Shown one piece after another: positions 40,378 to 58,384 of a stretch of 64,000 nt of DNA. A program made the position numbers and the translations under genes. The notes beneath the pieces are model-generated. The model had not been told where the DNA came from and searched no databases. It saw nothing but the letters and a program-made list of their open reading frames with translations. The stretch's first letter is position 1; each line of letters begins with the position of its first letter. Source of the stretch: a virus; the IMG/VR virus record IMGVR_UViG_3300012005_000004, positions 16,370 to 80,369 of that record. One strand, 5' to 3'.

Positions 40378-42498
40378 ATGCAACGGATTTATAAGGATAA
40401 TGCCGTGTTGCGAGGCATTATCGAAAACACCATGGATGCGATCATCGTCATTAACGATGATAATAAAGTAGTAGAATGGAACAAGTATGCCACTGATTTA
40501 TTTGGATATACCCAAGATGAAGCTATCGGTAGATCATTATCTTCTCTGATTATACCAGATACGTTCATTCCTCACCATGAGGCATGCGTTAATCGAGCTG
40601 TCCAAAATCAAAAAGATCATTGTTATCTTAGAACTGAGATGGATGCACGCAGAAAAGATGGTTGTAAGCTCAAAATTGAGCTTACAGTTTCTCAGATAAC
40701 TCTAAAAGATCAAAGCGGAATAAAGAATAGTTTGTTTAGCGTAGCAATACGTGATATCACAGTTCAAAAGAATAGTCAAGACCGTGTGATTCGCCAAGCT
40801 TCTCTTTTAGATCTTTCGCGTGATGGTATCTATGTTATTGATAAAGATCAGAGGTTGACTTGGTGGAATAAGGGGGCTGAGCTGCTCTACGGATATTCCA
40901 CTGATGAAGCTATCGGTCATATAGCTTATGAATTGTTACAAACAGATTACCCACTAAGTGGTAGGAATGCCTTTGAAGAGATCTTTCAAACACTTCTACA
41001 TTCTGGTTCTTGGGAAGGGGAGTTGACGCAACTCACAAAAGACGGTAATCGCGTTACAGTTCTCAGCCGTTGGGTACTTGATATCGAATATGATGAAGTG
41101 TTAATAACTAATACCAATATCACAGAGCTAAAACGAAATCAAGAAAAAATCGAATATCTCGCTACGCATGATGATCTCACTGGTTTGCCAAACCGTCGGT
41201 TGCTAGAAGATAGAATAAACCATGCGATAATCCAATGTGAACGAAATGGTGGTCACGTTGGTGTTCTATTCTTAGACCTTGATCGTTTCAAGATCATAAA
41301 TGATTCGCTTGGTCATGACATGGGAGATAAACTACTCAATGAGGTTAGTCAAAGATTAGTCAAATCAGTGAGACGTGAAGATACCGTAGCTCGTCTAGGT
41401 GGAGATGAATTTGTAGTAGTTCTTGAGAATGTATCAAATATTGAAGATATAGCTGAGATCTCTTCCAAGATACTGAATTCTATTCAACAACCTATTTCAT
41501 TGGGAGAAGGTGCTGGGAAGAGCATCTCAATCAACACTAGCATTGGTGGTTCCGTCTACCCAAAAGATGGCCTAGACGTTATCACATTGATGAGGAACGC
41601 TGATTTAGCTATGTATAAGTCTAAAGAATATGAAATGGGGGCATTTCGTTTCTACAGCCCAGAGATGAATGAGTTAGTTCTTCAACGACTGACAAATGAA
41701 AATAATTTAAGAAAAGCATTGAATAATGAAGAATTCATTCTCCATTTTCAACCGAAGATCTGTAGCGCAGAAGGGCGTACCACCGGTGTTGAAGCATTGA
41801 TTCGATGGAACCACCCAGAAAAGGGTTTAATCATGCCATCTGAATTTATTGGATTAGCTGAAGAGATCGGGTTAATCAATAAAATTGGTGAGTGGGCTCT
41901 ATACGCAGCGTGCGAGCAAAATAAAGCATGGCAAAATATGGGATTGCCTCTCATACAGATGTCAGTAAACTTGTCAGTGCACCAGCTCACGCCAAATTTA
42001 GTTAACATCGTATCAAAAGCGTTGAAAATGTCTGGCTTAGATCCAAAGTGGTTAGACCTAGAAGTTACCGAATCTGCTGCGATGAAAGATGTAGACATGA
42101 CGATTGAAACCTTAGGTAAACTTCGAAAGCTTGGTGTGTCAATCTCTATCGATGATTTTGGAACTGGATATTCATCTCTAGAATATCTTAAAAAGATGCC
42201 GTTAGATAACTTGAAGATTGATCAATCATTTGTTAGTGGCATTCCAACAGATTCTAATGACCTTTGTATCGTGGCTGCAATCATTGGTCTGGCTCATAAC
42301 ATGAAGCTACGAGTGATCGCTGAAGGAGTGACATCTAAAGAACAAGTTGCGTTCTTAGACACACACAAATGTGATGAGATGCAGGGTTACCTATTCAGCC
42401 GTCCAGTGACAGCTGAGGACGTAGAGCAAAGGTTGATCGGTCAAGTTTGGAGCTACCCATACCAAGGAAATCATGAACTACGAACGTGCGATGATTGA
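40378..42498 (+). CDS. PAS-PAS-GGDEF-EAL diguanylate cyclase/phosphodiesterase
   Basis: HDDLTGLPNR, RRED I-site, GGDEF, EALIRW, DDFGTGYSS, IAEGV. Confidence 0.96.
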   Translation: MQRIYKDNAVLRGIIENTMDAIIVINDDNKVVEWNKYATDLFGYTQDEAIGRSLSSLIIPDTFIPHHEACVNRAVQNQKDHCYLRTEMDARRKDGCKLKIELTVSQITLKDQSGIKNSLFSVAIRDITVQKNSQDRVIRQASLLDLSRDGIYVIDKDQRLTWWNKGAELLYGYSTDEAIGHIAYELLQTDYPLSGRNAFEEIFQTLLHSGSWEGELTQLTKDGNRVTVLSRWVLDIEYDEVLITNTNITELKRNQEKIEYLATHDDLTGLPNRRLLEDRINHAIIQCERNGGHVGVLFLDLDRFKIINDSLGHDMGDKLLNEVSQRLVKSVRREDTVARLGGDEFVVVLENVSNIEDIAEISSKILNSIQQPISLGEGAGKSISINTSIGGSVYPKDGLDVITLMRNADLAMYKSKEYEMGAFRFYSPEMNELVLQRLTNENNLRKALNNEEFILHFQPKICSAEGRTTGVEALIRWNHPEKGLIMPSEFIGLAEEIGLINKIGEWALYAACEQNKAWQNMGLPLIQMSVNLSVHQLTPNLVNIVSKALKMSGLDPKWLDLEVTESAAMKDVDMTIETLGKLRKLGVSISIDDFGTGYSSLEYLKKMPLDNLKIDQSFVSGIPTDSNDLCIVAAIIGLAHNMKLRVIAEGVTSKEQVAFLDTHKCDEMQGYLFSRPVTAEDVEQRLIGQVWSYPYQGNHELRTCDD

Positions 42499-43272: not shown

Positions 43273-44064
43273 TTATGGCTCCGCGAAGTCTTCTAGTCCA
43301 GCTTCGATCAGCTCATTTTGAGCTTCTAAAACTGAGATCTTACCCTTGTTATTTTTAGGACCGACATATTTGTTAATGATCGCCACCGCATCAATTAAAT
43401 CTTGAGAGTTATGATACTTAACCTCATCTTTTTTTAGCAAGGGTGTGTTATAGCGGCCTTTGACCCATGAATCATCTATAGCGACGCTAGTTAATCCTTC
43501 GATCAATAATAGACCTAAGATGTTTGACTTAATCGGATTTCCACCGATCCAAATAGAGCTGTTAATTCGATGGATGTGCTTGTGAATATCCTTGAGAGAA
43601 GTAAACTTATTACCAGAGATCCTGAGCTCTTTACCAAATTCTTTGGGGGCTCCTACAAAATCTGTTAGTAGATTGTTTGAGATGTTCATGCCACCATTTG
43701 GTAGCTTATCTGGAGCACCCTTCCAAGAGCTGATCTTATTGTTTCGAACGTTATAATAGTTTCCTGTAAATTTTGCAGGACCACCCGTCAGATCTTTGAG
43801 CTCTTGATCCATACAGATCAGGTAGCTGTTGAAGCTAAACATCCTCGGAAAATTCTTAAGACTAGTCACATTACCTTCTGCTGAAAATACTCCGTGACAC
43901 AGCGCAAATGGAACCTCGACATGTCCGTCTACTGATAAAGTTACATTAGCGTTTGCGATGATCTCTCCGTCTTGCACCATGCACTTGATCAAGTGATTAT
44001 CGCTGATAAATTTGGTGGCGCCGCGGTCCGCGGCTGATTCGACTAAGATTTGAGAGATTTTCAT
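43273..44064 (-). CDS. paralog family B late protein (LRR-like)
   Basis: Start MKISQILVES after TAAATA; N.LT...GAP repeats; IINKYV...EAQNELIEAGLEDFA tail. Confidence 0.75.
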   Translation of the reverse strand: MKISQILVESAADRGATKFISDNHLIKCMVQDGEIIANANVTLSVDGHVEVPFALCHGVFSAEGNVTSLKNFPRMFSFNSYLICMDQELKDLTGGPAKFTGNYYNVRNNKISSWKGAPDKLPNGGMNISNNLLTDFVGAPKEFGKELRISGNKFTSLKDIHKHIHRINSSIWIGGNPIKSNILGLLLIEGLTSVAIDDSWVKGRYNTPLLKKDEVKYHNSQDLIDAVAIINKYVGPKNNKGKISVLEAQNELIEAGLEDFAEP

Positions 44065-44159
44065 AGCTGTATTTATTTTATCATTAGTTGTCACCAACTA
44101 ATGATGTACTTTTCTAGAGATTTAAGTTATAATTAAATTATGTTTAATTGGAGGACTAG

Positions 44160-44387
44160 ATGCTGAGAGTTATAGGAGACAAGGCTGAGGCTGTTAGCGA
44201 GGCCAGATTGTTGTCAAAAACCATCCCGGGGATCCGCTTGTACGTAACGTCGAGCGGAAGTCTTCTCCTCACAGAGGAAGATCGACCTGAGCTCCGTGAA
44301 ATACCATTTAATGATGTTAGCATTCGTGCGATCCGAGAATATGATGTTGAATACATGGAAGAAGTCCCAGAATCAGAAAGAGTTTAA
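44160..44387 (+). CDS. hypothetical early protein
   Basis: Promoter 44105-44133; GGAGG SD. Confidence 0.65.
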   Translation: MLRVIGDKAEAVSEARLLSKTIPGIRLYVTSSGSLLLTEEDRPELREIPFNDVSIRAIREYDVEYMEEVPESERV

Positions 44388-44390
44388 ATT

Positions 44391-44582
44391 ATGAATATTA
44401 TAAAGTATCCGTACCCACGTGAAAAGATGATAGCTCCATTGATCATCGAGCAACCCAAGACGATCGATGAGATGATCACCGATGCTAAAAAGCTAGTTGC
44501 AGCTCACGGCATGCCTGTTTCCTTTGAGTACCGAGGAGCTACCATTATGGTAAGTAAAGGTCAAGCTTCTCAAAATGAATAA
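44391..44582 (+). CDS. hypothetical protein
   Basis: Operon context. Confidence 0.5.
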   Translation: MNIIKYPYPREKMIAPLIIEQPKTIDEMITDAKKLVAAHGMPVSFEYRGATIMVSKGQASQNE

Positions 44583-44596
44583 ATTTTTGAATTTAA

Positions 44597-44625
44597 TTTA
44601 CAAACTCAAAAAGTTAGTTTATAAT
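44597..44625 (+). promoter_or_regulatory. sigma70-like early promoter for Ro60
   Basis: TTTACA-N17-TATAAT. Confidence 0.8.
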
Positions 44626-44711
44626 TCTCCTTCACGCTTAAGCTAGTGTGTTGAATAGTGGCGCTGATCCATTGAAGGATCACAATTCCCTAACTGAAAG
44701 GTAATAAAAAC

Positions 44712-46148
44712 ATGAAGACCAACGCAAAGGCAGTAAACAACCGTCGCACCGAAGGTGGTGCACGTGCATCGGCGATCACGCCGGAACAAGAGCTGCGCCG
44801 TCAAGTAATGGCACTGATGCTGTGGGAAAATGGCGGACAGACAGAAAAGAATGTCGCATCGCTGATCCCGAAGTGTCGGCCAGAGTTCGTGGCCGCGTGC
44901 GCGTTCGAAGCTCGCACGAAGATGAAGCTGCGCCACGTTCCGCTGTTCATCGCGCGCGAGATGGCTCGGCACCCAGAGCACAAGTCCCTGGTGGGTAAGT
45001 TGCTGCCTGACCTGATCAACCGTGCCGATGAGATCAATGAGTTCATGGCGATCTACTGGAAGAACGGTAAGACCCCGATCTCGGCGCAAGTCAAGAAGGG
45101 TTTGGCCGCAGCTTTCAAGAAGTTCGGTCCGTATGCGCTGGCGAAGTACAATAAGACCGACATGGCCATCAAGATGCGTGATGTGATGTTCTTGACTCAC
45201 GCTAAGCCTGCCGATGCTCCTGGTGACAAGTACACCAAGGAAGTTCGTAAGGCTGAACGTGCTGGACAAAAGGCTCGTCAGCTGACCAAGGGCGAAAAGC
45301 TGTTCTCGGACTTGATCAATGACAAGCTGGAAACTCCTGACACATGGGAAACCAACCTGTCGGCTGGTGCAGACAAGAAGGAAACGTTTGAACGATTGAT
45401 GTCTGAAAACAAGCTGGGTGCATTGGCATTCATTCGTAACCTGCGGAACATGGTTCAGGCTGGTGTGAGCCGGCAGGCTATGAAGGAGTACGGAGCCAAG
45501 GTAAACTTGGAATACGTGCTGCCGTTCCGGTTCTTGTCAGCAGCTCGTCAAGTTCCAGGAATGGAAGACCTGTTGGAGCCGATGATGTTGCGTTGCCTGG
45601 AAGGTCAACCGAAGCTGCCGGGTAAGACCGTGCTGATTCTCGACACTTCTGGTTCGATGCACGCCGGAATCTCGGGCAAGTCTGACCTGACTCGTTTGGA
45701 CACGGCCGCAGCGCTGGCGATCTTGGTTCGTGAAATTTGCGAAGATGTCGTCATCTACTGTACCGCAGGTTCGGATGGAGCACGTCGTCACGCTACCATG
45801 CAGATCCCAGCACGTCGTGGATTTGCGCTGGCGGATTACATCCGTAGCAATGAAGTTCAAGGCAAGATCGGTGGTGGCGGTATCTTCTTGAAGCAGTGCC
45901 TGGACTTCGTGGAAATGAACGAAAAGACGGCAGACCGCGTGATCACGTTGACCGACGAGATCGACTGCGATGACAAGGCGTCTCCGGAGGGAGCTTCGAC
46001 TTTCGGTGAGAACAACTACATCATCAACGTCGCTACGCAGGCTAACGGTATCGCGTACTCGAAGTTCACGCACATCAACGGTTGGAGCGAAGCTGTAATC
46101 GACTTCATCCGCGTGCTTGAAGAAGACCAAGCGGCTGAATTGCAGTAA
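44712..46148 (+). CDS. rsr: Ro60/Rsr TROVE-vWA RNA-binding protein
   Basis: LAKY, L.TPDTWET.LS, ALAFIRNLRN, LPFRFLSA, vWA DTSGSM, GWSE. Confidence 0.93.
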   Translation: MKTNAKAVNNRRTEGGARASAITPEQELRRQVMALMLWENGGQTEKNVASLIPKCRPEFVAACAFEARTKMKLRHVPLFIAREMARHPEHKSLVGKLLPDLINRADEINEFMAIYWKNGKTPISAQVKKGLAAAFKKFGPYALAKYNKTDMAIKMRDVMFLTHAKPADAPGDKYTKEVRKAERAGQKARQLTKGEKLFSDLINDKLETPDTWETNLSAGADKKETFERLMSENKLGALAFIRNLRNMVQAGVSRQAMKEYGAKVNLEYVLPFRFLSAARQVPGMEDLLEPMMLRCLEGQPKLPGKTVLILDTSGSMHAGISGKSDLTRLDTAAALAILVREICEDVVIYCTAGSDGARRHATMQIPARRGFALADYIRSNEVQGKIGGGGIFLKQCLDFVEMNEKTADRVITLTDEIDCDDKASPEGASTFGENNYIINVATQANGIAYSKFTHINGWSEAVIDFIRVLEEDQAAELQ

Positions 46149-46232
46149 TGTTTTACGCATGGCACATGCGTACAAGTCCCCTGGATAAGAGATGGAATGT
46201 GCTAACAGAGGTCGGTTTACCATTCACCTCTT

Positions 46233-46366
46233 GGATGTGTAGCTCAGGTTGGTAGAGCGTCTAGTAGGAAAGCCCGGACGTTGATCCCATGTGGAAGCGC
46301 ATGGAGTAGTCGCGGTGTAGCAAGTACAAATGAAGGTCGCAGGTTCGACGCCTGCCACATCCGCCA
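46233..46366 (+). ncRNA. tRNA-like RNA (134 nt) with anticodon arm replaced by a long hairpin
   Basis: Acceptor GGATGTG/CACATCC+GCCA, D arm GCTC-AGGTTGGTA-GAGC, T arm GCAGG-TTCGACG-CCTGC; about 80 nt between D and T arms. Confidence 0.8.
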
Positions 46367-46368
46367 AA

Positions 46369-46608
46369 ATGAAACGAATTAGCACTTTATTGTTGAATCG
46401 AGTAATTGATAGCGTTCACCATCGAGCTTTTCGAGGGTATCCTACCTATTATGAAGAAATAAAGATCTTAGAGCTCCTAAAGGATGCACGTGAACTTATG
46501 AACAAGCATGATAAAGATAGAAGTAAAGTTGATTTAATCGCTCACGTTGTTCTAATCGGTGTTCTAGCTTTATCCGGTGTTATTGTAACCTACTCACTAT
46601 TTCGCTAA
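46369..46608 (+). CDS. small membrane protein
   Basis: C-terminal TM; ATG just after the tRNA-like CCA. Confidence 0.5.
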   Translation: MKRISTLLLNRVIDSVHHRAFRGYPTYYEEIKILELLKDARELMNKHDKDRSKVDLIAHVVLIGVLALSGVIVTYSLFR

Positions 46609-46844
46609 TGATGACCGATAAAGATATTCAATTCTTGAAAGAGCAGGTAAAGAATGGTGAGAACGTGTGTTATATCGATGATGACGGTAAGCGTCTTTTA
46701 GTATCCTCTGTGAATCTAAACTGGGTAGAATTCCCAGATGAACCAGATCTAAAAGAACCAGCCGCCATGCTAGTTGGTAGCGTTCCTGTAGCTTTATTGA
46801 ACGTTGAGCTGAGTTCTTTCATGAAATTGGTACCTCTAAAATAA
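46608..46844 (+). CDS. hypothetical protein
   Basis: TAATG coupling. Confidence 0.55.
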   Translation: MMTDKDIQFLKEQVKNGENVCYIDDDGKRLLVSSVNLNWVEFPDEPDLKEPAAMLVGSVPVALLNVELSSFMKLVPLK

Positions 46845-46857
46845 TTTCATAAAGTAG

Positions 46858-46886
46858 TTTACTTTTCTAGAAAGACAAGATATAAT
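46858..46886 (+). promoter_or_regulatory. sigma70-like promoter driving small RNAs
   Basis: TTTACT-N17-TATAAT; no ORF immediately downstream. Confidence 0.8.
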
Positions 46887-46900
46887 ACTTCCATAGCATA

Positions 46901-46975
46901 AATTCTTAAGTAAGAGCGATCTTAGTAGAGATACACTGTTAACATTAGCAGTACTAAGGCTCTTACTTAAGAATT
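46901..46975 (+). ncRNA. hairpin small RNA
   Basis: Perfect 17-bp stem 46901-46917/46959-46975 plus inner CTTAGTA/TACTAAG. Confidence 0.6.
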
Positions 46976-47040
46976 CAGGTGGCGTAGATAACGGTTACTT
47001 CACTTCCAAAGAAACCAACCGTTCTCGCTTAGTTCCCCTG
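46976..47040 (+). ncRNA. candidate minimal Y-RNA-like hairpin
   Basis: CAGG/CCTG closing, bulged GCG/CGC, AACGGTT/AACCGTT helix, TTC/GAA cap; near rsr. Confidence 0.5.
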
Positions 47041-47046
47041 TAATAT

Positions 47047-47126
47047 GGTTCCGTAGCTCAATGTTAGAGCGCCTGGTCCCTTTGCGGACAGGAGATAGTG
47101 GAGTTCAAATCTCTCTCGGATCCACC
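47047..47126 (+). tRNA. atypical tRNA-like gene (extended anticodon stem, 6-nt loop CTTTGC)
   Basis: GGTTCCG/CGGATCC acceptor with T-T mismatch, D arm GCTC/GAGC, TTCAAAT loop. Confidence 0.6.
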
Positions 47127-47167
47127 TAAATTTGTAATTTTTGTGAAGTCTTATAAATAAACCTGTT

Positions 47168-47263
47168 ATGAAAAACTTTGTTTCCTTACTGTCGCTTAGT
47201 TATTGGTCATTGTCCTACCTTGGACAAGGCCTTGATGTACCGACTGAAGGATGGGATTTGTAG
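47168..47263 (+). CDS. putative Leu/Ser-rich leader peptide (31 aa)
   Basis: MKNFVSLLSLSYWSLSYLGQGLDVPTEGWDL* directly after TATAAATA; overlaps alternative hairpins. Confidence 0.55.
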   Translation: MKNFVSLLSLSYWSLSYLGQGLDVPTEGWDL

Positions 47264-47291
47264 GAACCCACAAAGATTCAGCAGGTTTATC

Positions 47292-47319
47292 AAGGCTCCG
47301 CAAGGGGCCTTAATTGTTT
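47292..47319 (+). terminator. terminator-like hairpin (attenuator candidate)
   Basis: AAGGCTCC-GCAA-GGGGCCTT then AATTGTTT; weak U-tract. Confidence 0.55.
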
Positions 47320-47422
47320 CTGGAGATAGAAAATGGATTGTGATCATGGATATCTTCTGGGCAATGGTTTGGGTGTTGTGGATAGCGATGATAGCTTCGC
47401 TGATCAGCACTGATTAAAATAT

Positions 47423-47505
47423 CTTCGACTGGCTAATACAAACTGGCACAGTTAGCGTCCTCAAAAGTCGCGCCTCTATCGGTTCGAATCCGATGTCGAA
47501 GACCA
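47423..47505 (+). tRNA. tRNA-Leu(CAA), short variable arm, long D loop
   Basis: CTTCGAC/GTCGAAG+ACCA; loop CTCAAAA; ATCGG-TTCGAAT-CCGAT. Confidence 0.8.
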
Positions 47506-47516
47506 AAGTAGTATAT

Positions 47517-47607
47517 GGATCTCGCAAGTAAGGATGGGTGGTCCCGTCAGCCGGCTGTAACCCGGTTCCTATTAGGCAAGGCGTTCAACTCGACCCGAGA
47601 TCCACCA
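47517..47607 (+). tRNA. atypical tRNA-Tyr(GTA), 8-bp acceptor, 6-bp D stem
   Basis: GGATCTCG/CGAGATCC+ACCA; GATGGG-TGGT-CCCGTC; GCCGG-CTGTAAC-CCGGT. Confidence 0.75.
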
Positions 47608-47611
47608 AAAT

Positions 47612-47696
47612 GTATCAGTAGACCCTTAAGGAGAGGGGACAGTCTGTAAAACTGTTGGCTTTGCCCTGCTAGGATCGTTACCTAGATGATGCACCA
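47612..47696 (+). tRNA. tRNA-Tyr(GTA)
   Basis: ACAGT-CTGTAAA-ACTGT; T loop ATCGTTA; ACCA end. Confidence 0.85.
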
Positions 47697-47720
47697 AGAA
47701 GTATGTTATAATGGGATTAT

Positions 47721-47810
47721 GGAAGATAGCGTCTAAGGTAGACAAACGGCTTTGAACACCGTCGCCAACACCTCAGTAGGGTTGTCAGTTCGATTCTGGT
47801 CTCTTCCGCC
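47721..47810 (+). tRNA. tRNA-Ser(TGA), 8/4 fold
   Basis: GGAAGATA/TCTCTTCC, loop TTTGAAC, long V arm, TCAG-TTCGATT-CTGG. Confidence 0.8.
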
Positions 47811-47861
47811 TGTGAACCTTTTTACCACTTTGTATAAATACATGTTTCGAAAGAGACATGT

Positions 47862-48542
47862 ATGCAAAGACAAGCTTCACGTAGAAAGTATCATTACATT
47901 TACAAGACCATTTGTTTAGTGAGTAACCGATACTACATCGGAATGCATTCTACCGATGATCTTGATGATGGATATGTAGGTTCTGGGAAACGATTATGGC
48001 ATTCAATCCGTAAACATGGGTTAGAAAAACATAAATGTGAAATTTTAGAATTTTTAGATTCAAGAGAAAAACTTAAGATTCGTGAACGAGAGATCGTTAA
48101 TGAAGATTTCCTTAAAGATCCTCAATGCATGAATCTGACGTTGGGTGGTGGGTGTGGATGGGATTATACAAATTCAGTATTAACCGACGAACAAAGAACT
48201 AAAGCTGGAAAAGCTGGTGGATATGCTAATAGAACATTTGAGCAACGATCAGCTGCTGGTAAAATAGGTGGTAAGATTGGAGGAGTACTAACCTGGTTAA
48301 AGAATAGAGAACAAGCTGAAGCATATAGGAAAATAGCTATTAAAATCGCTACATTACCAGAAAACATAGAAAAAAGAAAAATCACCTTTATGAAAATGAA
48401 TCATCAAAAAGGAGAAAAGAATTCTCAATTTGGTACAAAATGGATTCATAATGATGATTTGAAACTTAGTAAAAAGTGCAATAAGAATGATCTATTAGAT
48501 CATTTAGAAAATGGTTGGAAGCTTGGAAGAAAGATAAAATAG
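47862..48542 (+). CDS. GIY-YIG homing endonuclease (Seg-like) in tRNA cluster
   Basis: YIYKTI...YYIGMH, YVGSG, N-L..GG, GEKNSQFGT; AT-rich; TATAAATA upstream. Confidence 0.85.
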   Translation: MQRQASRRKYHYIYKTICLVSNRYYIGMHSTDDLDDGYVGSGKRLWHSIRKHGLEKHKCEILEFLDSREKLKIREREIVNEDFLKDPQCMNLTLGGGCGWDYTNSVLTDEQRTKAGKAGGYANRTFEQRSAAGKIGGKIGGVLTWLKNREQAEAYRKIAIKIATLPENIEKRKITFMKMNHQKGEKNSQFGTKWIHNDDLKLSKKCNKNDLLDHLENGWKLGRKIK

Positions 48543-48613
48543 GTCACTGATGTAGTGATAGCATGACAGTCTCCAAAACTGTTTGTCAGAGTTTGATTCT
48601 CTGGTGGCCTGCC
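48541..48613 (+). tRNA. tRNA-Trp(CCA)
   Basis: AGGTCAC/GTGGCCT; ACAGT-CTCCAAA-ACTGT. Confidence 0.85.
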
Positions 48614-48619
48614 GTTATT

Positions 48620-48708
48620 GGAAGTGTATTGTGCCAGGTGGCACAGATGGTTTGCTAAACCATTGGGCTCAGTTAATGGGCCGGGTTCGAGTCCCTGCGC
48701 TTCCGCCA
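48620..48708 (+). tRNA. tRNA-Ser(GCT), 9/3 fold
   Basis: GGAAGTGTA/TGCGCTTCC, D TGTGCC-AGGT-GGCACA, ATGGT-TTGCTAA-ACCAT, GGG-TTCGAGT-CCC, GCCA. Confidence 0.85.
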
Positions 48709-48783
48709 GTTGGTTGACCGCATGACCGTTCCGGTAAGTAAGATCAAAGGTCGTTAATATTGACACCAACATTTAAGAAGTAT

Positions 48784-48870
48784 GCCCGAGTGGTGAAATG
48801 GTATCCACAGAAGACTTAAAATCTTCCGGCTGTAATGGCCATACCGGTTCGAGTCCGGTCTCGGGCACCA
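48784..48870 (+). tRNA. tRNA-Leu(TAA)
   Basis: Canonical class II cloverleaf, loop CTTAAAA, ACCA. Confidence 0.93.
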
Positions 48871-48872
48871 TT

Positions 48873-48959
48873 GGAAGTTAAACTGCGTAGGACGCAGCGC
48901 TGCCTCGAAAACAGTAGGACTCAGTAATGGGTTGAGTTTCGATTACTCTTTCTTCCGCC
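48873..48959 (+). tRNA. tRNA-Ser(CGA), 8/4 fold
   Basis: D CTGCGT-AGG-ACGCAG, loop CTCGAAA, GAGT-TTCGATT-ACTC; acceptor has two U-U mismatches. Confidence 0.75.
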
Positions 48960-48967
48960 GACCTCAT

Positions 48968-49054
48968 GCACCTATGGCGGAACTGGTAGACGCGCAAGAT
49001 TGAGGGTCTTGTGTCCGAAAGGACGTGGGAGTTCGAATCTCCCTAGGTGCACCA
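48968..49054 (+). tRNA. tRNA-Leu(GAG)
   Basis: Canonical; CAAGA-TTGAGGG-TCTTG; ACCA. Confidence 0.93.
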
Positions 49055-49069
49055 AGTAATATCACACTT

Positions 49070-49158
49070 CCCCGTGTGGACAAATTGGTAAAGTTGCCGC
49101 ACTCAGACTGCGGAGCCGCGAAAGCGTATTGTCGGTTCGAACCCGACCATGGGGACCA
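49070..49158 (+). tRNA. tRNA-Leu(CAG)
   Basis: CCGCA-CTCAGAC-TGCGG; ACCA. Confidence 0.9.
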
Positions 49159-49217
49159 GTTGAAATAGTTTTACTTTGTAGTGAAAGCATGGTATAATTT
49201 TCTTTTAGGAGAAAAAC

Positions 49218-49646
49218 ATGTTTGAAGCTTACAATGGCGACAAGGACAAGTTGGTGAAGTTTAATGGAGTAGCAGCTCAAAAGATTCTTGATAAGTTTGC
49301 GAGCTCCAATGTTGTTAGTAACCCAGGTCTTCAAAAATTTACTTTTGATGATTTTAAGGTCGGTGAATTCACAGCATCATTTAGCTACTTCTTCGATCGT
49401 CAAAAAGGAATTGACTTCTTAAAGTGTGGTGACAAGATGTATGTTCATGATCAATGGGTTAAGACAGAAACTTTCTCAGGAGTTCAAGTCTCCATTGGAG
49501 AATCATTTCCTCAACTAGCTGATGATATCAAGAAGGCATTTCCAGATCTTGGATTTAACATCATCTTCATCAAGGAGCTAGGTTTGAGGATGCAAGTTAG
49601 CGCAGGAGAGATCTACAACATCGAACGTTTTAAAGAAATTAAGTAG
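49218..49646 (+). CDS. hypothetical early protein
   Basis: Promoter 49170-49198; AGGAG SD. Confidence 0.7.
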   Translation: MFEAYNGDKDKLVKFNGVAAQKILDKFASSNVVSNPGLQKFTFDDFKVGEFTASFSYFFDRQKGIDFLKCGDKMYVHDQWVKTETFSGVQVSIGESFPQLADDIKKAFPDLGFNIIFIKELGLRMQVSAGEIYNIERFKEIK

Positions 49647-49653
49647 CATTAAT

Positions 49654-49735
49654 GGGATTGTGGCTAATACAAATCGGCACAGTTATCAGGTTTAGAACCT
49701 GAGCCTTTGAGGGTTCGAATCCCTCCAGTCCTACC
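49654..49735 (+). tRNA. tRNA-Leu(TAG), short variable arm
   Basis: TCAGG-TTTAGAA-CCTGA; D region nearly identical to Leu(CAA) at 47423. Confidence 0.85.
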
Positions 49736-50128
49736 GATCACAAAGCTGACCTATCGCTGAGGTGTAAAAATTCTTAGAGAAATCTAAGTTGTAAACCCTT
49801 AGAGGAAAGTCGGGGCTACAAAGAGCAGGGATTGTCGCTCTGTGGAAGTAAGAGGTGTTGATTGAAAACTACCCTGAGGTCTGAAAAGGCAACAGGCTCT
49901 CGCAATCATCACTAGATATCAGATCTGTGTGGTAACAGCACAAACAACCTCGTATCCTCGCTTACGTTATACCACAACGACTCCGTAGCAAGCCAAACAG
50001 GTACCGTTGACGTTGCTGGCCGAGGTACCGGGTTGGTGCAGCCGAAAGGCACGAGGGTGTATGGCAACCCACACCGTCGTAGACGAATGATAGGATAAAA
50101 CAGAACTCCGCTTACGGGCTTTGTGATC
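49736..50128 (+). ncRNA. rnpB: RNase P RNA (bacterial type A-like)
   Basis: P1 GATCACAAAGC/GCTTTGTGATC; GAGGAAAGTCGGGGCT (49802-49817), TAGACGAATGA, ACAGAACTCCGCTTA (50100-50114); P4 pairing retained. Confidence 0.9.
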
Positions 50129-50131
50129 AAT

Positions 50132-50219
50132 ATGTCGACTTAACATGGTCTGAACATGGCCACGGGCAGGTGATACTTCCCGTGGTGTGGGCAATACGTG
50201 GAGGAGCCTTAATCGACAT
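50132..50219 (+). ncRNA. unclassified rod-shaped small RNA candidate
   Basis: ATGTCGA/TCGACAT closing; CCACGGG/CCCGTGG apical stem; GC-rich intergenic. Confidence 0.45.
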
Positions 50220-50275
50220 TTTAGAGTTTACACCTCGATTAAATTGAGATATAATGATTTTTTGAGGAGAACATC

Positions 50276-50614
50276 TTGAGAAATCATACTGATAGGTTTA
50301 CGCTGTGTTTTGATGAGTCTGGTCAAGTTTCCGTCGGCTCGCTAGATAAAATTGATGAGATGTTAAGATCTTATGGATCAAAGGGTCTCAAGGAAGATGG
50401 AAAATATAGCCATCATTTTGAAATTTCGCAAGAGTTTCGTAAAGGTAAAAAGATAGAAGGGTGTTTAACCTTTCCGAACTATGTTTTAACTGATATGAAA
50501 AAGTCAGACATGGGAGAGGTTCTTCTCAAGCTTCTAGGTCTTGGAGCCAAGACAGTTTTTATCGTTGAAACGGAAGATACCGTGAATGATGTGCAAGTGA
50601 ATACACGTTGGTAA
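50276..50614 (+). CDS. hypothetical early protein
   Basis: Promoter 50227-50255; GAGGAG SD; TTG start. Confidence 0.65.
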   Translation: MRNHTDRFTLCFDESGQVSVGSLDKIDEMLRSYGSKGLKEDGKYSHHFEISQEFRKGKKIEGCLTFPNYVLTDMKKSDMGEVLLKLLGLGAKTVFIVETEDTVNDVQVNTRW

Positions 50615-50618
50615 TTTT

Positions 50619-50710
50619 GGAAGAGTTCCCAGGAAGGTTCCTGGTGCTGTTTGGAATACAGTTGCAGTGGTCACAAGCCGCTGACGGATCGACACCGTAC
50701 TTTTCCTCCC
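50619..50710 (+). tRNA. tRNA-Ser(GGA), 8/4 fold
   Basis: GGAAGAGT/ACTTTTCC, D CCAGGA-AGGT-TCCTGG, GCTGT-TTGGAAT-ACAGT, ACGG-ATCGACA-CCGT. Confidence 0.82.
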
Positions 50711-50715
50711 ACAAT

Positions 50716-50801
50716 GGGGCTGTGATGTAAGACAAACCCGGTACAGTCAGCAGATTTAAATCCTGCCATTTTTACGAGTTCGAATCTCGTCAGCCCTACC
50801 A
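50716..50801 (+). tRNA. second tRNA-Leu(TAA), short variable arm
   Basis: GGGGCTG/CAGCCCT+ACCA, loop TTTAAAT, ACGAG-TTCGAAT-CTCGT. Confidence 0.78.
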
Positions 50802-50833
50802 TCAATAAATAGCTCCTTACCGGAGCTATTTTT

Positions 50834-51379
50834 ATGAAGATCACCGAAGTACTAATCAGCCACAAGGATGCCCCCGCAGGCTTCAAGGGTCTGGGATCGA
50901 CCAAGATGCTAGCTAAAAAGCTAAAATTCTCCGATGGCCGCCCAGTCGAATACACGATCGGTAATAGCACCATGTATGATAGGAGTAACCCGAAAAAGAA
51001 GGGACTGTTGATAAACATCTCATTTCCAACTAAAGAAGGTCCGGTGCGGGCTAATACTTATGGTATGGGTTACAACAATACTGGATATGATCACTATCAC
51101 TCTTCTCCTGTTGAAAAAACCGCGATTGACAAGGAAACGTTAAAGAAGGTGATCCCAGCAGTTCACAAGCGTATTGAAGCTCTTCACCCACCAAAAGGTG
51201 ATGTTACTAACGATGAATTTCGAGACTTTGACAACAAGGTAGGTAATGTGATCTATAAGTGCCTTCGTGGTTATGAGATCTTGTCTAAGTATATCGTTAA
51301 AGGTGGCGGTAGAGCTAGTATGATCGATGCCCAAGACGAGCTTAACGATAAAGATTTGGAAGATTACGTTGACTTTTGA
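50834..51379 (+). CDS. late protein sharing the family B C-terminal motif
   Basis: TAAATA upstream; MKITEVL; ILSKYI...GRASMIDAQDEL...LEDYV. Confidence 0.7.
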   Translation: MKITEVLISHKDAPAGFKGLGSTKMLAKKLKFSDGRPVEYTIGNSTMYDRSNPKKKGLLINISFPTKEGPVRANTYGMGYNNTGYDHYHSSPVEKTAIDKETLKKVIPAVHKRIEALHPPKGDVTNDEFRDFDNKVGNVIYKCLRGYEILSKYIVKGGGRASMIDAQDELNDKDLEDYVDF

Positions 51380-51443
51380 TCGTACAAAGTAGTTTACATT
51401 TCTCGAAGATTGAGTTATAATCTACTCAACATAGGAGCGGATT

Positions 51444-51821
51444 ATGAATCAGCTTATTTCTTTCCTCAGGAACAAGACCAAGAACCAATGGATCAAGGTA
51501 GGAAACTTTGATATCTATGTTCGACACGGCCATCATTATATAGACAGCAAGGTAATAACTACCTTTGACATCGCCAACATCGAAAATCGAGTAGAAGCTG
51601 AGCGTGGCAAAGGTAAGTTCAAGTTAATTCTTGCCGAGCTACAACAGATCCTCGAGATAGATAAAGATCTCCGAGGAGACATCAAGGGAATTTTTATCGA
51701 GAGTGTGTTAAATCCGCAATTGATCGAATCTCTTCCGAAGCTCGGTTTTAGGTTAGTCGGCGATACAAATCCTCCATCTTTCTTTCGACCAGTCGCTTAC
51801 GCGATGGTGCCTTCATTATGA
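51444..51821 (+). CDS. hypothetical protein, possible GNAT fold
   Basis: IANI...ERGKG, VLNP.L...L.KLGF. Confidence 0.55.
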   Translation: MNQLISFLRNKTKNQWIKVGNFDIYVRHGHHYIDSKVITTFDIANIENRVEAERGKGKFKLILAELQQILEIDKDLRGDIKGIFIESVLNPQLIESLPKLGFRLVGDTNPPSFFRPVAYAMVPSL

Positions 51822-52009
51822 CATTTGATACTATACCAGAAGATCATGTGCTATCTTATCATTGCTCGTGTGGAGGTAGCATCGTTGAGAGCGGTCCCGG
51901 ACAATGGGAATGTGATTCTTGTCCATGGGATTCTAGCAAACCAGAAACACAGGAGCTCATCTTAGATCTTATTGAAGATGAAGACTATCTCTTAGAGGAT
52001 CCAACATGA
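51818..52009 (+). CDS. small Zn-ribbon protein
   Basis: CSCGG...WECDSC. Confidence 0.55.
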   Translation: MTFDTIPEDHVLSYHCSCGGSIVESGPGQWECDSCPWDSSKPETQELILDLIEDEDYLLEDPT

Positions 52010-52260
52010 ACCACGCAACTGCTTTCCTTGTATTAGCTGTGATCATCGTATTGCTTTTTGGCTGTTATTGGTGGACCGGTGGAAAATGATACGAGCTACA
52101 ATTCAAGAGTATCGAGGAGATTCTCCTTCATCGAAGGAATTTGTTCGAAATTTTAACACCAAGGAAGAATTGGATTCTTGGGTAAAACGATCTAAACACC
52201 CAGTATTGTCGATCAAGGTAATTAAGATTGAAGACGAAGAGATGAAAGGTTAAGAAATAC

Positions 52261-52335
52261 GGGCTGTTAGCACAGTGGTTAGTGCAATGGACTCCAAACC
52301 CATTGACGGGAGTTCGATTCTCTCACGGCTCGCCA
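52261..52335 (+). tRNA. tRNA-Trp(CCA)
   Basis: GGGCTGT/ACGGCTC+GCCA; loop CTCCAAA. Confidence 0.88.
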
Positions 52336-52350
52336 GAACATTATAAAGGG

Positions 52351-52650
52351 ATGATCATGATTAGGCCAATTGAAAAGATCTATGGTGCGACTAGTCGCAG
52401 CAAATTGACCATCACCCCAAAACAAGTCACAATGAGGATTCGCGTTGGGGCTTCGGATGAAGAGCGTGAACGAACTGAAAAGTTCTTCGCGACGATCGCC
52501 GAAAAGGTGGTTGAAGTCCCGAAGACAATTCGGGGAAATTTAGCTAAGCATGAACCTAGCGATACGCTTTACATCGTAATGAAGAATGAAGCAGGAGATT
52601 TTTCAGAGCGATTTTTTGAAACTGAGATCAAGCCAAAACAAGCAGCTTGA
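52351..52650 (+). CDS. hypothetical protein
   Basis: Start moved downstream of the tRNA. Confidence 0.6.
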   Translation: MIMIRPIEKIYGATSRSKLTITPKQVTMRIRVGASDEERERTEKFFATIAEKVVEVPKTIRGNLAKHEPSDTLYIVMKNEAGDFSERFFETEIKPKQAA

Positions 52651-52702
52651 ACAGTCACCATGACATGTCGTCGGGTGTAAATCTACGTACAGGAGATTTT
52701 TA

Positions 52703-53314
52703 ATGTCACGAAATCAACGAAACAGCGGGGCAACCACCAAGGGATGGATCTTGGCTACGCTTATGGCGGAGCTCGGCAAGAGTCATCCACGTCTTTCAGC
52801 AGTCCAAATTGGAAATATACTCAATATTCCAGCAGATACGATTCGCTGGCATCTCAAGGAGCTTAGGGATGAAGGTCTAGTTCTCAGGGAGAATTCTCCA
52901 GTTAATTCAACTTCCTTCGTTTACTGGGCTCCGTCGAATCCAGGAGCTTTGGGTGCTCAACCTGCTGTTGACGTAGCTTCTCCACCTAAAGCCACCGTCG
53001 AGCCTTGGCCATATCCAGAAAAAGATAAGGCTATCAAGGGAGCTGGCGCAAACTTTCCACCTCCTGCGCGGCCTGCACCACCGATGCCAGCCGTCAAACC
53101 ATCTAAGATTCGCACGCCAAACTCTACTACAGTTGATGCTCTCAAGGAAGCTGATAGATTGGTAGCAGCAAAGAAGGCAGCAGATGAGAGTGCAGCAGAT
53201 GAGAGTTCTGATGAAGCTACGATCAAATTTTCAATCAGCGGAACTTCGATCGAAGTTACTCTCTCAGAAGCAGCTTCGATCTTTAATAAGCTGAAGCCGA
53301 TCTTTGCCAGGTAG
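52703..53314 (+). CDS. winged-helix DNA-binding protein
   Basis: LSAVQIGNILNIPADTIRWHLKELRDEGLV. Confidence 0.75.
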   Translation: MSRNQRNSGATTKGWILATLMAELGKSHPRLSAVQIGNILNIPADTIRWHLKELRDEGLVLRENSPVNSTSFVYWAPSNPGALGAQPAVDVASPPKATVEPWPYPEKDKAIKGAGANFPPPARPAPPMPAVKPSKIRTPNSTTVDALKEADRLVAAKKAADESAADESSDEATIKFSISGTSIEVTLSEAASIFNKLKPIFAR

Positions 53315-53344
53315 AAAAATGGGAGCTAATTAGCTCCCATTTTT
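53315..53344. terminator. bidirectional intrinsic terminator
   Basis: AAAAATGGGAGCTAATTAGCTCCCATTTT between convergent genes. Confidence 0.85.
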
Positions 53345-53835
53345 CAATTTAGCGATTCGCTATCTTTTGCTGCGTATCTGAGATTAGTTACTACTCGAGC
53401 ACACCAGCCTCTCCCAAAGGTTGGGAAGGTTGAGATCTTAGTAAAAAAGTTAAGACGCTCGGCCAAGAACCTGATCAATACTAAGTGAACTTCCATCTTA
53501 CTATATGAGTCTTGACTAATCTGACCCCAGTGTCCATCATCTGCTACACCTACTGCTCGCTGAAGCATGCGAATAGCGGTGCTGACACCATGATTCACTC
53601 CAGCATCAAAGACTTGAAAGTTTACCGATGGATCTAAGTGCTGTCCGCAAGGCTCCCAATAGTCACGAAGATAGATCGCTTTTGCTCCATCTCGTGTCAG
53701 ATCTTTAATGTTAATATTTGGATATTGACGCTTAGAAATCCCCCAATTAGTCTCTCCGCCAGGGTCTTGTGGATGATTAACATAGCCCCCTTCGTTCCCC
53801 AACAACCGATCAAATGCCTGGTCAAATGTAATCAT
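53344..53835 (-). CDS. GH108 lysozyme (endolysin) with PG-binding domain
   Basis: EGGYVNHPQDPGGETNWGIS, FDAGVNHG, FGRGW; late promoter. Confidence 0.92.
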   Translation of the reverse strand: MITFDQAFDRLLGNEGGYVNHPQDPGGETNWGISKRQYPNINIKDLTRDGAKAIYLRDYWEPCGQHLDPSVNFQVFDAGVNHGVSTAIRMLQRAVGVADDGHWGQISQDSYSKMEVHLVLIRFLAERLNFFTKISTFPTFGRGWCARVVTNLRYAAKDSESLN

Positions 53836-53949
53836 AAAGTCCTCAAAGATGCTATTTATTTGAGTTTACAACAAGAATTGGCTATGTTATAATGAATTGT
53901 CCATTGCTTTCCTGGACTCCCAAACTCTAACTTTTAAGGAAAAGTTACA

Positions 53950-55191
53950 ATGAGTGACCAACAACCAAGTGCTCGAATGAAGATTGAAGGGCTGCTTACC
54001 AAGCAGCCATCGAAGTGGCTTTCTACAGGAGAGATCGCAGAATCATTACCTGACGTAAAACGTTCCATGATCTATGTCACTATCAGTCATTTGGCCACCA
54101 AGTCAAATCGTCTGGTTCGTCGAAAGCGATCTGGAGAAAGCGGCGGGTATGAATACCAGATCTCTGCTGCTGTGAATCCAGAAGATCAACCAAGATCTGT
54201 AAATGGGTATGGGTGGACACACGATGAAAAGATCGCCTTCACCACCGCCTACATGAAGCTCAAGAAAGAGCGATCTTATTTGGCTACATCGGAGGTGATT
54301 CGGGAGGCACAGAAAGCTCTACCAGTCGAGAAACAACGACGATACATCACCAAGACCGCGAATCTTCCTTGGCTCGATCATTATATCCTTCAAGTTAAGG
54401 AAATTGAGAATATCAATCGTGAGAGACAACAACGATCGGATAAGCTTGCTGAAAAAGCTGGTTATCAGCCTATCGGCAGAGAATCTGTACCAGCAATAGT
54501 ACCACTTCAATTTGCGAAAGGTGCTAGACATCCTGGAGAGCTTCCTCCAGAAAAGCCAGTTGAGACGCCATTAGTTGAACCAGTAAAACAAGCGGTCCTG
54601 CCTAAGGAGCCAGAACCAGTTCTTATTCCTCTTGAGATTAGTTCTCTGGCTACTGATGCGCTGATTGAAGAGCTGAGTAAGCGAGCATCTTCGATCTTGC
54701 AAAAGGTTTTGTCGCAGACGATCATTGAAGTTTTCAAGTCTCCTCAAGTCCGAGAAGCTTTGACCATTAAGGTCAACGTCAATGTCAACCAGCGTCAAGA
54801 AGCTCGCCGGACCGATGACGTTCCTCCAGTCCATGACGTTCCACCTGAAACTATACGGCCTAAACATGATCCTCAACCGTTTCAAGTAGATAAGCCGAAG
54901 CTTAAGAAGATCTTGGTGGTTGGGCTGATCAACTCTCAGATTCGTGAGATCGAGAAAGAATTTCAAGATACCCTTGACATTCGATTCTGGAGGACAGATG
55001 AGCACACTAACATGTTGAAGTCGAAAGCCGGCCAAGCTGATTACACCATCTTGGTTGCAGATTTTGTTAGCCATTCTCACCAGGAGATCTTGAATACTTT
55101 GGGTGTTAAGTTCATTAGACACTCCGGTGGTATGACGAAGCTTAAGGACTTGCTCACCGGTATCTACGTTAATGAATCTCTACCAAAGTAA
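53950..55191 (+). CDS. N-terminal wHTH protein with C-terminal DUF2325-like domain
   Basis: LSTGEIAESL HTH; ILVVGL...ADY..L.ADFVSH. Confidence 0.6.
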   Translation: MSDQQPSARMKIEGLLTKQPSKWLSTGEIAESLPDVKRSMIYVTISHLATKSNRLVRRKRSGESGGYEYQISAAVNPEDQPRSVNGYGWTHDEKIAFTTAYMKLKKERSYLATSEVIREAQKALPVEKQRRYITKTANLPWLDHYILQVKEIENINRERQQRSDKLAEKAGYQPIGRESVPAIVPLQFAKGARHPGELPPEKPVETPLVEPVKQAVLPKEPEPVLIPLEISSLATDALIEELSKRASSILQKVLSQTIIEVFKSPQVREALTIKVNVNVNQRQEARRTDDVPPVHDVPPETIRPKHDPQPFQVDKPKLKKILVVGLINSQIREIEKEFQDTLDIRFWRTDEHTNMLKSKAGQADYTILVADFVSHSHQEILNTLGVKFIRHSGGMTKLKDLLTGIYVNESLPK

Positions 55192-55283
55192 GTAATATTT
55201 TGGCATCACCTAAGAGAAGTGAGCAGTAATGTTTACTTCTCTTTTCTTTTGTGTTAGAATATTTTATTCTAGGAACACACTCG

Positions 55284-55589
55284 ATGCCGTGGATAACAAA
55301 CAGAATTTTCAAGATACGATTTTTGAAGCAAGGTAAAAATAGTGAAGATCATACGATACAATTTGAGATAGCAGATACTGGTCGCATTGAATTTTATAAA
55401 GAGATCGAATACTTTTTAGCGTCTTGCATCAACGCTGATGCATTCATTGCTAAGTGTGAGAGCATCATTGATGACTCTGGAGAAGCTACCGAGCTTGAAA
55501 TCGAGATCTCTGGATCCCAAGGAAAGTTGATGCAGGTGTTAAACCAACATGGGCCGGAGCTGAGCAAGCATTCGGTTAGTTTTAAATGA
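55284..55589 (+). CDS. hypothetical protein
   Basis: AGGA SD before ATG 55284. Confidence 0.55.
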   Translation: MPWITNRIFKIRFLKQGKNSEDHTIQFEIADTGRIEFYKEIEYFLASCINADAFIAKCESIIDDSGEATELEIEISGSQGKLMQVLNQHGPELSKHSVSFK

Positions 55590-56137
55590 TAGAAGAGATT
55601 AAGGTAATATTTCTAGACATCGATGGAGTTATTAACTCATTACGCTCATTTACCGCGTTCAAACCTTATAACCCAGAAGATGATCTCGAGCTAGAAACCA
55701 TCGCTACATGTGATCCTGTTTCTGTTAAGTTAATCAATATGATCGTCGAGCAGACCAAGGCTAAGATCGTCGTATCATCTTCTCACCGAATTTACTTTCA
55801 CTCAAGGTATGCTTCTCGATTTCAAGAGACGTCCTTCTTAGGATTTGACCTAGACAAGCTTCAGCTGTATATCTCCTCACTTGGAATTTTTGGTGAAGTC
55901 ATCGACGCAACTCCTATCTTTGATGGTGAGAAGAGGGGTGAAGAGGTAAATGGATGGTTAAATGAATTTCCAGCAAAATTTCCTTTATATGCGTTGAGTC
56001 GGTATGCCATCTTTGATGATACCACAGACTTTCTAGCAGAGCAAGCGTCAAAGCTAGTTCTATCTACTTTTGATAATGGGTTTTCAATCGACAACTACAA
56101 GCGAGCGTTATTGATCTTAGGAGATGACATTGCCTGA
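55586..56137 (+). CDS. HAD phosphatase, Swiss-Army-Knife RNA-repair type
   Basis: FLDIDGV, IVVSSS, RGEEV..WL, YAIFDD. Confidence 0.82.
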   Translation: MIEEIKVIFLDIDGVINSLRSFTAFKPYNPEDDLELETIATCDPVSVKLINMIVEQTKAKIVVSSSHRIYFHSRYASRFQETSFLGFDLDKLQLYISSLGIFGEVIDATPIFDGEKRGEEVNGWLNEFPAKFPLYALSRYAIFDDTTDFLAEQASKLVLSTFDNGFSIDNYKRALLILGDDIA

Positions 56138-57059: not shown

Positions 57060-57082
57060 ATACCAAAAACAAGGAGCATTTT

Positions 57083-57754: not shown

Positions 57755-58041
57755 ACAAATACTCAACATCACTTGCAATTTTTGCTCAAGCTCCAGCAAT
57801 GAGTATTGACCAGGAGCTTACCGTTAAGCTTAAGGTTCTGTCGGAACAGAAGGATGATGTGAAATCAGACCAGGTACTTGAGATCCTTGATCTCGGAGCC
57901 AGATATTCAATGATGAGCGAGTTTGCGATGCGGGCTCTTGACGAGCTGTGGTACATAATGATCAAAGATGAAGGTAAGACAGAGGAACAAGCTAGGTTGG
58001 AAGCTGAGCCAAGACGCAAGGCTCATGAGGCTAGCGAATAA
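57751..58041 (+). CDS. hypothetical protein
   Basis: ATGA coupling. Confidence 0.55.
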   Translation: MNKYSTSLAIFAQAPAMSIDQELTVKLKVLSEQKDDVKSDQVLEILDLGARYSMMSEFAMRALDELWYIMIKDEGKTEEQARLEAEPRRKAHEASE

Positions 58042-58049
58042 ATATTAGT

Positions 58050-58380: not shown

Positions 58381-58384
58381 CATT

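Follow-up and report, generated by a model that had tools for sequence, protein, structure and literature searches.

A predicted codon-matched leader-peptide attenuator upstream of the tRNA genes of a giant soil phage

In front of the tRNA genes of a very large soil phage we identified a 31-codon open reading frame (ORF) in which 13 consecutive codons specify only Ser, Leu, Tyr and Trp, the four amino acids for which all downstream tRNA(-like) genes carry anticodons, and which is followed by overlapping, mutually exclusive RNA hairpins. We read this element as a multivalent leader-peptide transcription attenuator, through which the phage may make these tRNAs only when ribosomes run short of them, although on present sequence evidence we consider this about as likely as not. 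Such trp operon-style control has not been described for tRNA genes, and we found no published account of it. The window analysed is a stretch of 64,000 nt, positions 16,370 to 80,369 of the 80,369-base IMG/VR virus record IMGVR_UViG_3300012005_000004, which CheckV rates as 22% complete, so that it represents a fragment of a much larger genome. The same phage was present in three soil-metagenome DNA runs of a single study, two of which may be its source, without sequence variants in the element, and no RNA dataset was listed among the sequencing runs containing it.

The element lies in an island of RNA genes, which also contains a TROVE/Ro60 gene (44712–46148), tRNA-like RNAs at 46233–46363 and 47047–47123, a Y-like RNA, many tRNA genes, an RNase P RNA-like gene (49738–50130, 72.9 bits, below the Rfam cut-off) and a permuted tmRNA (58038–58332). 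The small proteins encoded at 46608–46844 and 49218–49646 had no relatives in a search of viral contigs. The features of the element and its surroundings, with the hairpins named by the role they would have in an attenuator, are as follows:

46858–46886, + strand: likely promoter of the operon (TTTACT-N17-TATAAT), the last phage-type promoter before the tRNA genes.
47127–47167, + strand: AU-rich 5′ region of the leader without a Shine-Dalgarno (SD) sequence, which can pair with 47253–47289 and could thus act as an extra anti-antiterminator that also sequesters the start codon.
47168–47263, + strand: leader ORF, 31 codons plus TAG stop (MKNFVSLLSLSYWSLSYLGQGLDVPTEGWDL).
47183–47221, + strand: thirteen consecutive putative control codons, codons 6–18 (SLLSLSYWSLSYL).
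47183–47251, + strand: hairpin 1:2 (anti-antiterminator), with the control codons as its 5′ arm.
47229–47296, + strand: hairpin 2:3 (antiterminator), 8+3+5 bp plus an apical stem.
47292–47311, + strand: hairpin 3:4 (terminator-like), 8 bp with a GCAA loop.
47312–47321, + strand: weak T tract AATTGTTTCT.
47322–47413, + strand: SD sequence GGAGA plus a 26-codon ORF, between the hairpin and the first tRNA.
47422–47810, + strand: first tRNA block, with A Leu-CAA (47422–47505), B GUA on an 8/4 scaffold (47517–47607), C Tyr-GUA (47612–47696) and D Ser-UGA (47721–47810).
48541–49158, + strand: second tRNA block, behind the GIY-YIG gene, with Trp-CCA, Ser-GCU, Leu-UAA, Leu-GAG and Leu-CAG.

An earlier note on this sequence had described the 31-aa ORF with its 13-codon run in varied synonyms, the match to the downstream tRNA set, and a pairing that excludes a terminator hairpin, and this observation was confirmed in our analysis. 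The 13 codons use 11 different codons and form the longest Ser/Leu/Tyr/Trp run in all six frames of the record, the next longest being 8, and only 1 of 200 second-order Markov genomes reached 13 anywhere, whereas these codons make up 19.7% of the codons in the long ORFs of the phage. Among the 1,038 small ATG ORFs of the record the leader ORF scored 7.45, against 4.72 for the runner-up. When the same score was applied to 180 tRNA blocks of other phages, the real maximum was 5.15, and one of 900 set-swapped control blocks reached the value seen here. Locally the run corresponds to a chance of roughly 1e-5, although a scan of very many windows can throw up a coincidence of that size.

The amino acid set is fixed independently by the tRNA genes. 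ARAGORN and Rfam identified Trp-CCA, Ser-GCU, Leu-UAA, Leu-GAG, Leu-CAG, a tRNA at 49654–49733 and a second Trp-CCA, while relaxed ARAGORN settings, folding and an alignment added several non-canonical genes, namely A to D as listed above, E (49653–49735, anticodon UAG), Ser-GGA with 8/4 geometry (50619–50706) and F (50716–50798, anticodon UAA). The 13 tRNA(-like) genes downstream of the leader thus carry the anticodons CAA, GUA, GUA, UGA, CCA, GCU, UAA, GAG, CAG, UAG, GGA, UAA and CCA, all for Leu, Ser, Tyr or Trp. No other tRNA was found in the record, but as the record is a fragment, other tRNAs may exist elsewhere in the genome. The leader codons are read by 9 of the 10 distinct anticodons of the island, which is only mildly informative (P about 0.08, given 13 such codons). 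A relaxed pattern search for the unusual tRNA B gave only chance hits in coding DNA.

The + strand of 47130–47330 folds at −63.5 kcal/mol (z −4.1), while the − strand folds 15 kcal/mol worse (z −2.6). The pairings given in the earlier note, GCCTTGAT (47229–36) with ATCAAGGC (47289–96), extended by ACC/GGT and CTGAA/TTCAG, are correct and form hairpin 2:3 (−28.3 kcal/mol, z −5.65). This hairpin shares AAGGC (47292–96) with the terminator-like hairpin 3:4 (−12.8 kcal/mol), as AAGGC can pair with either GCCUU 47229–33 or GCCUU 47307–11, and is hence mutually exclusive with it. We additionally identified hairpin 1:2 (−26.3 kcal/mol, z −4.71), which overlaps the control codons and shares segment 2 with hairpin 2:3. 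The region from the AUG to 47311 (47168–47311) folds as 1:2 plus 3:4, whereas 47222–47320 alone folds as 2:3 without the terminator, and growing-chain folds showed 1:2 formed by 47255 and kept thereafter. This is the energy ordering expected of an attenuator, with 1:2 plus 3:4 being more stable than 2:3, and 2:3 more stable than 3:4. Between the leader and the tRNA genes the putative terminator combines a good 8 bp stem and a GNRA loop with a poor T tract, with a T-tail score of 1.1, or 2.4 if the stem is extended, compared to 3.5 for another terminator of this phage and 3.4–4.9 for the terminator of the analogous leader described below.

The effect of ribosome position was modelled by masking. 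With no ribosome, or with a ribosome at the stop codon, the terminator hairpin had a probability of 0.8, whereas a ribosome stalled with its A site at 47198–47216 (codons 11–17), with the RNA upstream of it unavailable, gave the antiterminator at 0.47–0.98 and the terminator at 0.14 or less. Stalls at the first control codons gave a mixture and a stall at G19 gave the terminator, neither favouring the antiterminator. When only the 28 nt ribosome footprint was masked, the AU-rich region 47127–47165 paired with 47253–47289, capturing segment 3, and the terminator persisted at 0.8 for every stall position. The switch therefore works in silico only if this helix is prevented, for example by a second initiating or queued ribosome, by the difficulty of closing a helix around a ribosome, or by kinetics.

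The phage has a sharply over-represented promoter motif, TTTAC[AT]-N17-TATAAT, with 17 hits at up to one mismatch against 1.1 expected, of which 15 are on the + strand. Copies are located at 44597 (before the Ro60 gene), 46858, 49170, 50227 and further on, with none between 46886 and 49170, and a generic promoter scan found none between 47311 and 47422. Nine tRNA genes (47422–49158) therefore appear to be reachable only from the promoter at 46858–86, through the hairpin at 47292–47311, and the leader ORF lies on the same strand between this promoter and the tRNA genes. The hairpin cannot be an unconditional stop if those genes are expressed. The sequence TATAAATA (47152–59), which the earlier note placed ahead of the ORF, is not a convincing promoter, as it has no acceptable −35 sequence and does not fit the motif of the phage, and a leaderless start from it remains pure speculation. 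Alternatively, the hairpin may simply be the unconditional end of the upstream Y-like/tRNA-like RNA unit, with the tRNAs driven by an unrecognised downstream promoter, since the hairpin follows the small RNA genes and promoters of phage-encoded or modified polymerases could escape a σ70 scan; the absence of a promoter-like site between 47311 and 47422 in both scans, and a T tract which is weak for a constitutive terminator, make this improbable.

Translation of the leader ORF is not supported by a ribosome binding signal, as the duplex energy upstream of ATG 47168 is +1.5, against −6.4 for the ORF at 47333 and −7.3 for that at 49218, and the start has only an AU-rich upstream region and AUG-AAA. 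About half of the crude ORF calls of the phage have an SD sequence, against a fifth of random sites. The ORF could also be an ordinary small protein gene with its own 3′ hairpin, with a Ser/Leu-rich N-terminal half and an acidic tail, where the peptide rather than its translation rate is the product. Small ORFs are common between phage tRNA genes, with many seen in two other phage sequences (designated L115 and G009), and the peptide is moderately hydrophobic and then acidic, loosely resembling small membrane peptides. However, next to the missing SD sequence, neither the leader nor the neighbouring small ORFs matched a family in Pfam or PHROGs, the ORF has no relatives in the sequence sets searched, and the mean hydropathy of residues 4–19 is only about 1.1 (calculated by hand with Kyte-Doolittle values), which is too low for a typical membrane helix. 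This reading does not explain the alternative hairpins or the exact match to the tRNA set, and we consider it improbable. A type I toxin mRNA was rejected based on the same hydropathy and the absence of a promoter-like site for an antisense RNA on the − strand at 47100–47400.

A further possibility is that the element is a structured non-coding spacer or stable small RNA of the island, forming a rod of about 160–185 nt that ends in a stabilising or processing hairpin, perhaps as an RNase III/E substrate which helps to release the neighbouring tRNA-like RNA and tRNAs, with the ORF and its codon run being coincidental. The minimum free energy structure is indeed a long rod (47127/47157 to 47289) plus a 3′ hairpin, the island is rich in structured RNAs, and the missing SD sequence, the weak T tract and the lack of a general excess of codon-matched leaders in other phages are consistent with this. 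It does, however, leave the unique codon run, matched to the tRNA set, to chance, and does not explain why two mutually exclusive hairpins, each with z below −4.5, share segment 2, and the analogous leader described below has the same layout with canonical signals; we consider it less likely than attenuation, but more likely than the other alternatives. There was no Rfam match of the element to YrlA, 6S RNA, T-box, other riboswitches or any other family. Specifically for a Ro60-bound bacterial Y RNA, there was no YrlA hit within 44000–60000 at E-values up to 1, and the stretch conserved among Ro60 loci is 46969–47039 and not this element.

No homologue of the element was found in 114 Ro60-bearing loci, in four tRNA-sharing phages or in 50,697 phage records, with blastn and nhmmer searches of 46150–47860 and 47127–47420 against the 50,697 phage records, 33 + 80 Ro60-bearing loci and the loci L115 and L116–118 returning nothing for the element, which left no basis for a covariation test. 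The earlier note had suggested asking whether leader codons follow tRNA content in related phages. A search of viral contigs for the D arm plus anticodon loop of tRNA B identified three contigs, two of which (G001, 197 kb, and G003) are the same phage, sharing only a few proteins with the present phage at 30–40% identity. The single tRNA array of G001 encodes Val, Val, Ser, B, Tyr, Leu, Gly, Leu, Asn, Asn and four Pro tRNAs. About 400 nt upstream on the same strand (locus L118, leader 5902–6078, viral contig IMGVR_UViG_3300023208_000003) we found a promoter-like site (L118:5807–5834), an SD sequence, a 38-codon ORF (5902–6018, MNKQAISTIVNPSYSLGGLGYAPVLASSNPTNSRNSFL) and a strong terminator (6043–6078). 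In this ORF, 12 consecutive codons and 24 of the last 29 belong to {V,S,Y,L,G,N,P}, exactly the set of that array, and its last codons (6000–6013) pair with the 5′ arm of the terminator (−21.3). Masking a ribosome at the stop codon gave the terminator, and masking at V10, Y14 or L25 gave the antiterminator, although at Y21 the terminator remained. A second promoter-like site (6200–6227) lies between terminator and array, and a search for relatives of the gene neighbouring this leader found only the same phage.

This leader differs from the element described here by its SD sequence, its strong terminator and a simpler three-segment layout, and the two share no sequence similarity. Its ORF ranks third of 2,282 small ORFs of the whole record, but recurrence is limited, as about 270 tRNA blocks in other phages showed no excess of such leaders: none was seen over set-swapped or rank-based controls in 180 blocks of Ro60-bearing loci or in 66 blocks of four other giant phages, and no such leader was seen in L115 or in the contig G002, where a Lys-rich 13-codon ORF before tRNA-Gln/Lys proved to be an off-frame reading of a Lys/Glu-rich protein tail. 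After that many comparisons the codon match of G001 alone is not significant, and its weight comes from the canonical attenuator wiring which accompanies it.

The interpretation in the earlier note, that stalling on depleted tRNAs switches on the phage tRNA operon by trp/his-type logic, is therefore partly supported, and with hairpin 1:2, the promoter layout and the analogous leader the architecture fits trp/his/ilv-type logic better than was apparent from that note. In our model, host RNA polymerase starts at 46858–86 and would transcribe a hairpin RNA, a Y-like RNA and a tRNA-like RNA, followed by the leader, where a ribosome would begin the ORF at 47168. If Ser, Leu, Tyr and Trp codons are decoded quickly, or if no ribosome loads, segment 1 (47183–47215) would pair with segment 2 (47222–47251), allowing hairpin 47292–47311 to form, where most transcripts would end or be delayed. 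If the ribosome stalls in the 13-codon run for want of charged tRNA, best at codons 11–17, segment 1 would be covered, and segment 2 would pair with 47276–47296 and take AAGGC away from the terminator stem, so that polymerase runs on into the tRNA genes for exactly those codons. More of these tRNAs would then shut the switch again, giving negative feedback. Of this model, the ORF, the codon run and its rarity, the three overlapping hairpins and the promoter layout were demonstrated by our sequence analysis, whereas translation of the ORF, termination at the hairpin and stall-dependent read-through are inferred, making the model plausible but unproven.

The closest known mechanisms are the multivalent leaders of enterobacterial amino acid operons, such as ilvGMEDA (Ile/Leu/Val) and thr (Thr/Ile), in which a short ORF carries a dense run of codons for several amino acids, followed by overlapping 1:2, 2:3 and 3:4 hairpins with termination as the default without a stalled ribosome. 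In the phage element the genes proposed to be regulated are tRNA genes rather than biosynthetic genes, the signal would be the decoding capacity for four amino acids as read by 9–10 isoacceptors, the SD sequence is absent, the T tract is weak, an extra 5′ partner for segment 3 is present, and the stop codon lies in the antiterminator loop rather than at segment 2. The trp, his and phe leaders (pheL is treated in PMC3082878) and the pheST attenuator use the same ribosome-stalling logic, and pheST shows that a component of the translation apparatus can be controlled in this way, but these leaders use a single amino acid, are chromosomal, and none is known to control tRNA genes. Our literature searches found no paper joining tRNA arrays or operons to leader-peptide attenuation. 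The Anabaena trn operon, a long accessory tRNA array located on a bacterial plasmid, is also kept low and induced when translation is impaired, but via the transcriptional repressor TrcR (PMC8421152, PMC10272220), and the words attenuation, leader peptide and terminator do not occur in PMC8421152. In T-box riboswitches the choice between terminator and antiterminator also reports tRNA status, but these bind uncharged tRNA directly and do not require translation.

Phage tRNA genes are usually discussed as codon usage helpers or, more recently, as replacements for host tRNAs cut by defence nucleases (PMC10264068, PMC11464382, PMC11555353), and such answers to tRNA-cutting defences are well documented (PMC12673091, PMC13096335), which gives a sensor of this kind a plausible use, while how expression of phage tRNAs is controlled is hardly known. 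A more speculative reading, which we consider rather unlikely but cannot exclude, is that the leader is the sensor of a counter-defence circuit, measuring through ribosome speed the supply of class II tRNAs (Leu, Ser, Tyr) and of tRNA-Trp during infection, and opening transcription of a replacement set when a host tRNA nuclease or shut-off has depleted them. Several members of that set have non-canonical shapes (8/4 scaffolds, Leu anticodons on short-variable-arm bodies, and altered T loops) which could escape the nuclease, and this would represent a feedback-controlled tRNA supply embedded in a Ro60/Y RNA/RNase P/tmRNA island. A leader peptide that reads out decoding speed for exactly the codons served by the array would be a direct, self-correcting gauge of the tRNA pool and, if real, a compact natural sensor of isoacceptor availability, which would extend one of the classic bacterial control mechanisms from amino acid supply to tRNA supply.

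The promoter motif of the phage, TTTAC[AT]-N17-TATAAT, was strongly over-represented in the window, with 17 hits against 1.1 expected, and was almost always located on the + strand. The 17 sites include those at positions 44597, 46858, 49170, 50227, 51393, 53865 and 59004, and a TGTAC[AT] variant of this motif is used by a distant phage of 197 kb (G001). In the latter phage, a second and more canonical codon-matched putative leader, with predicted terminator and antiterminator, was found upstream of its only tRNA array (L118:5807-6227, corresponding to G001:194264-194684), followed by a 44-codon basic ORF with a Shine-Dalgarno (SD) sequence and a second promoter-like site before the array is reached.

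In the window, the region 47322-47417 between the terminator-like hairpin and the first tRNA gene contains a 26-codon Asp-rich ORF (47333-47413) with an ideal SD sequence, and overlapping with this a 23-codon, very hydrophobic ORF (47346-47417, MDIFWAMVWVLWIAMIASLISTD), neither of which gave a family match. Further upstream, the stretch 46969-47039, located just upstream of the tRNA-like gene, was the only part of the region 46150-47860 with blastn matches in other Ro60-bearing phage loci (L007, L019, L024, L026 and L010), which fits a conserved Y-RNA-like element.

Several of the tRNA genes displayed unusual architectures. Three related tRNA genes (47422-47505, 49653-49735 and 50716-50798) have Leu anticodons (CAA, UAG and UAA, respectively), and share a long D region (GGCTAATACAAA..GGCACAG) with only a short variable region, which is unlike canonical tRNA-Leu; an 88%-identical relative is located in a complete 106-kb viral contig (L115:7536-7614). 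The tRNA at 47517-47607 has a Tyr anticodon (GUA) on a scaffold consisting of an 8-bp acceptor stem, a 6-bp D-stem and a 4-bp T-stem, with an 8-nt linker between acceptor and D-stem, and sits next to a normal tRNA-Tyr. This tRNA is conserved at 83% identity in three other viral contigs (L118:6876-6971, L122 and L123), where it is located inside their tRNA arrays.

Other genes and RNAs detected in the same phage fragment were the following:
40378-42498, a gene encoding a 706-aa PAS-PAS-GGDEF-EAL protein, which is the domain set of cyclic-di-GMP turnover enzymes.
47862-48542, a GIY-YIG homing-endonuclease-type gene (SegE-like, based on a weak match) inserted in the tRNA array, with its stop codon overlapping the start of tRNA-Trp.
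49738-50130, an RNase P RNA-like gene scoring 72.9 bits, which is below the Rfam cut-off of 100.
58038-58332, a permuted (two-piece type) tmRNA.
62017-63948, − strand, a gene encoding a 643-aa protein with collagen triple-helix repeats.

All 13 tRNA and tRNA-like genes of the record (47422-52335 in the window) have anticodons for Leu, Ser or Tyr, which are the bacterial class II tRNAs with a long variable arm, or for Trp. Such a restricted set, as inferred from the anticodons alone, suggests the replacement of a specific group of host tRNAs, which may for example follow attack by a nuclease that reads the variable arm or loop.
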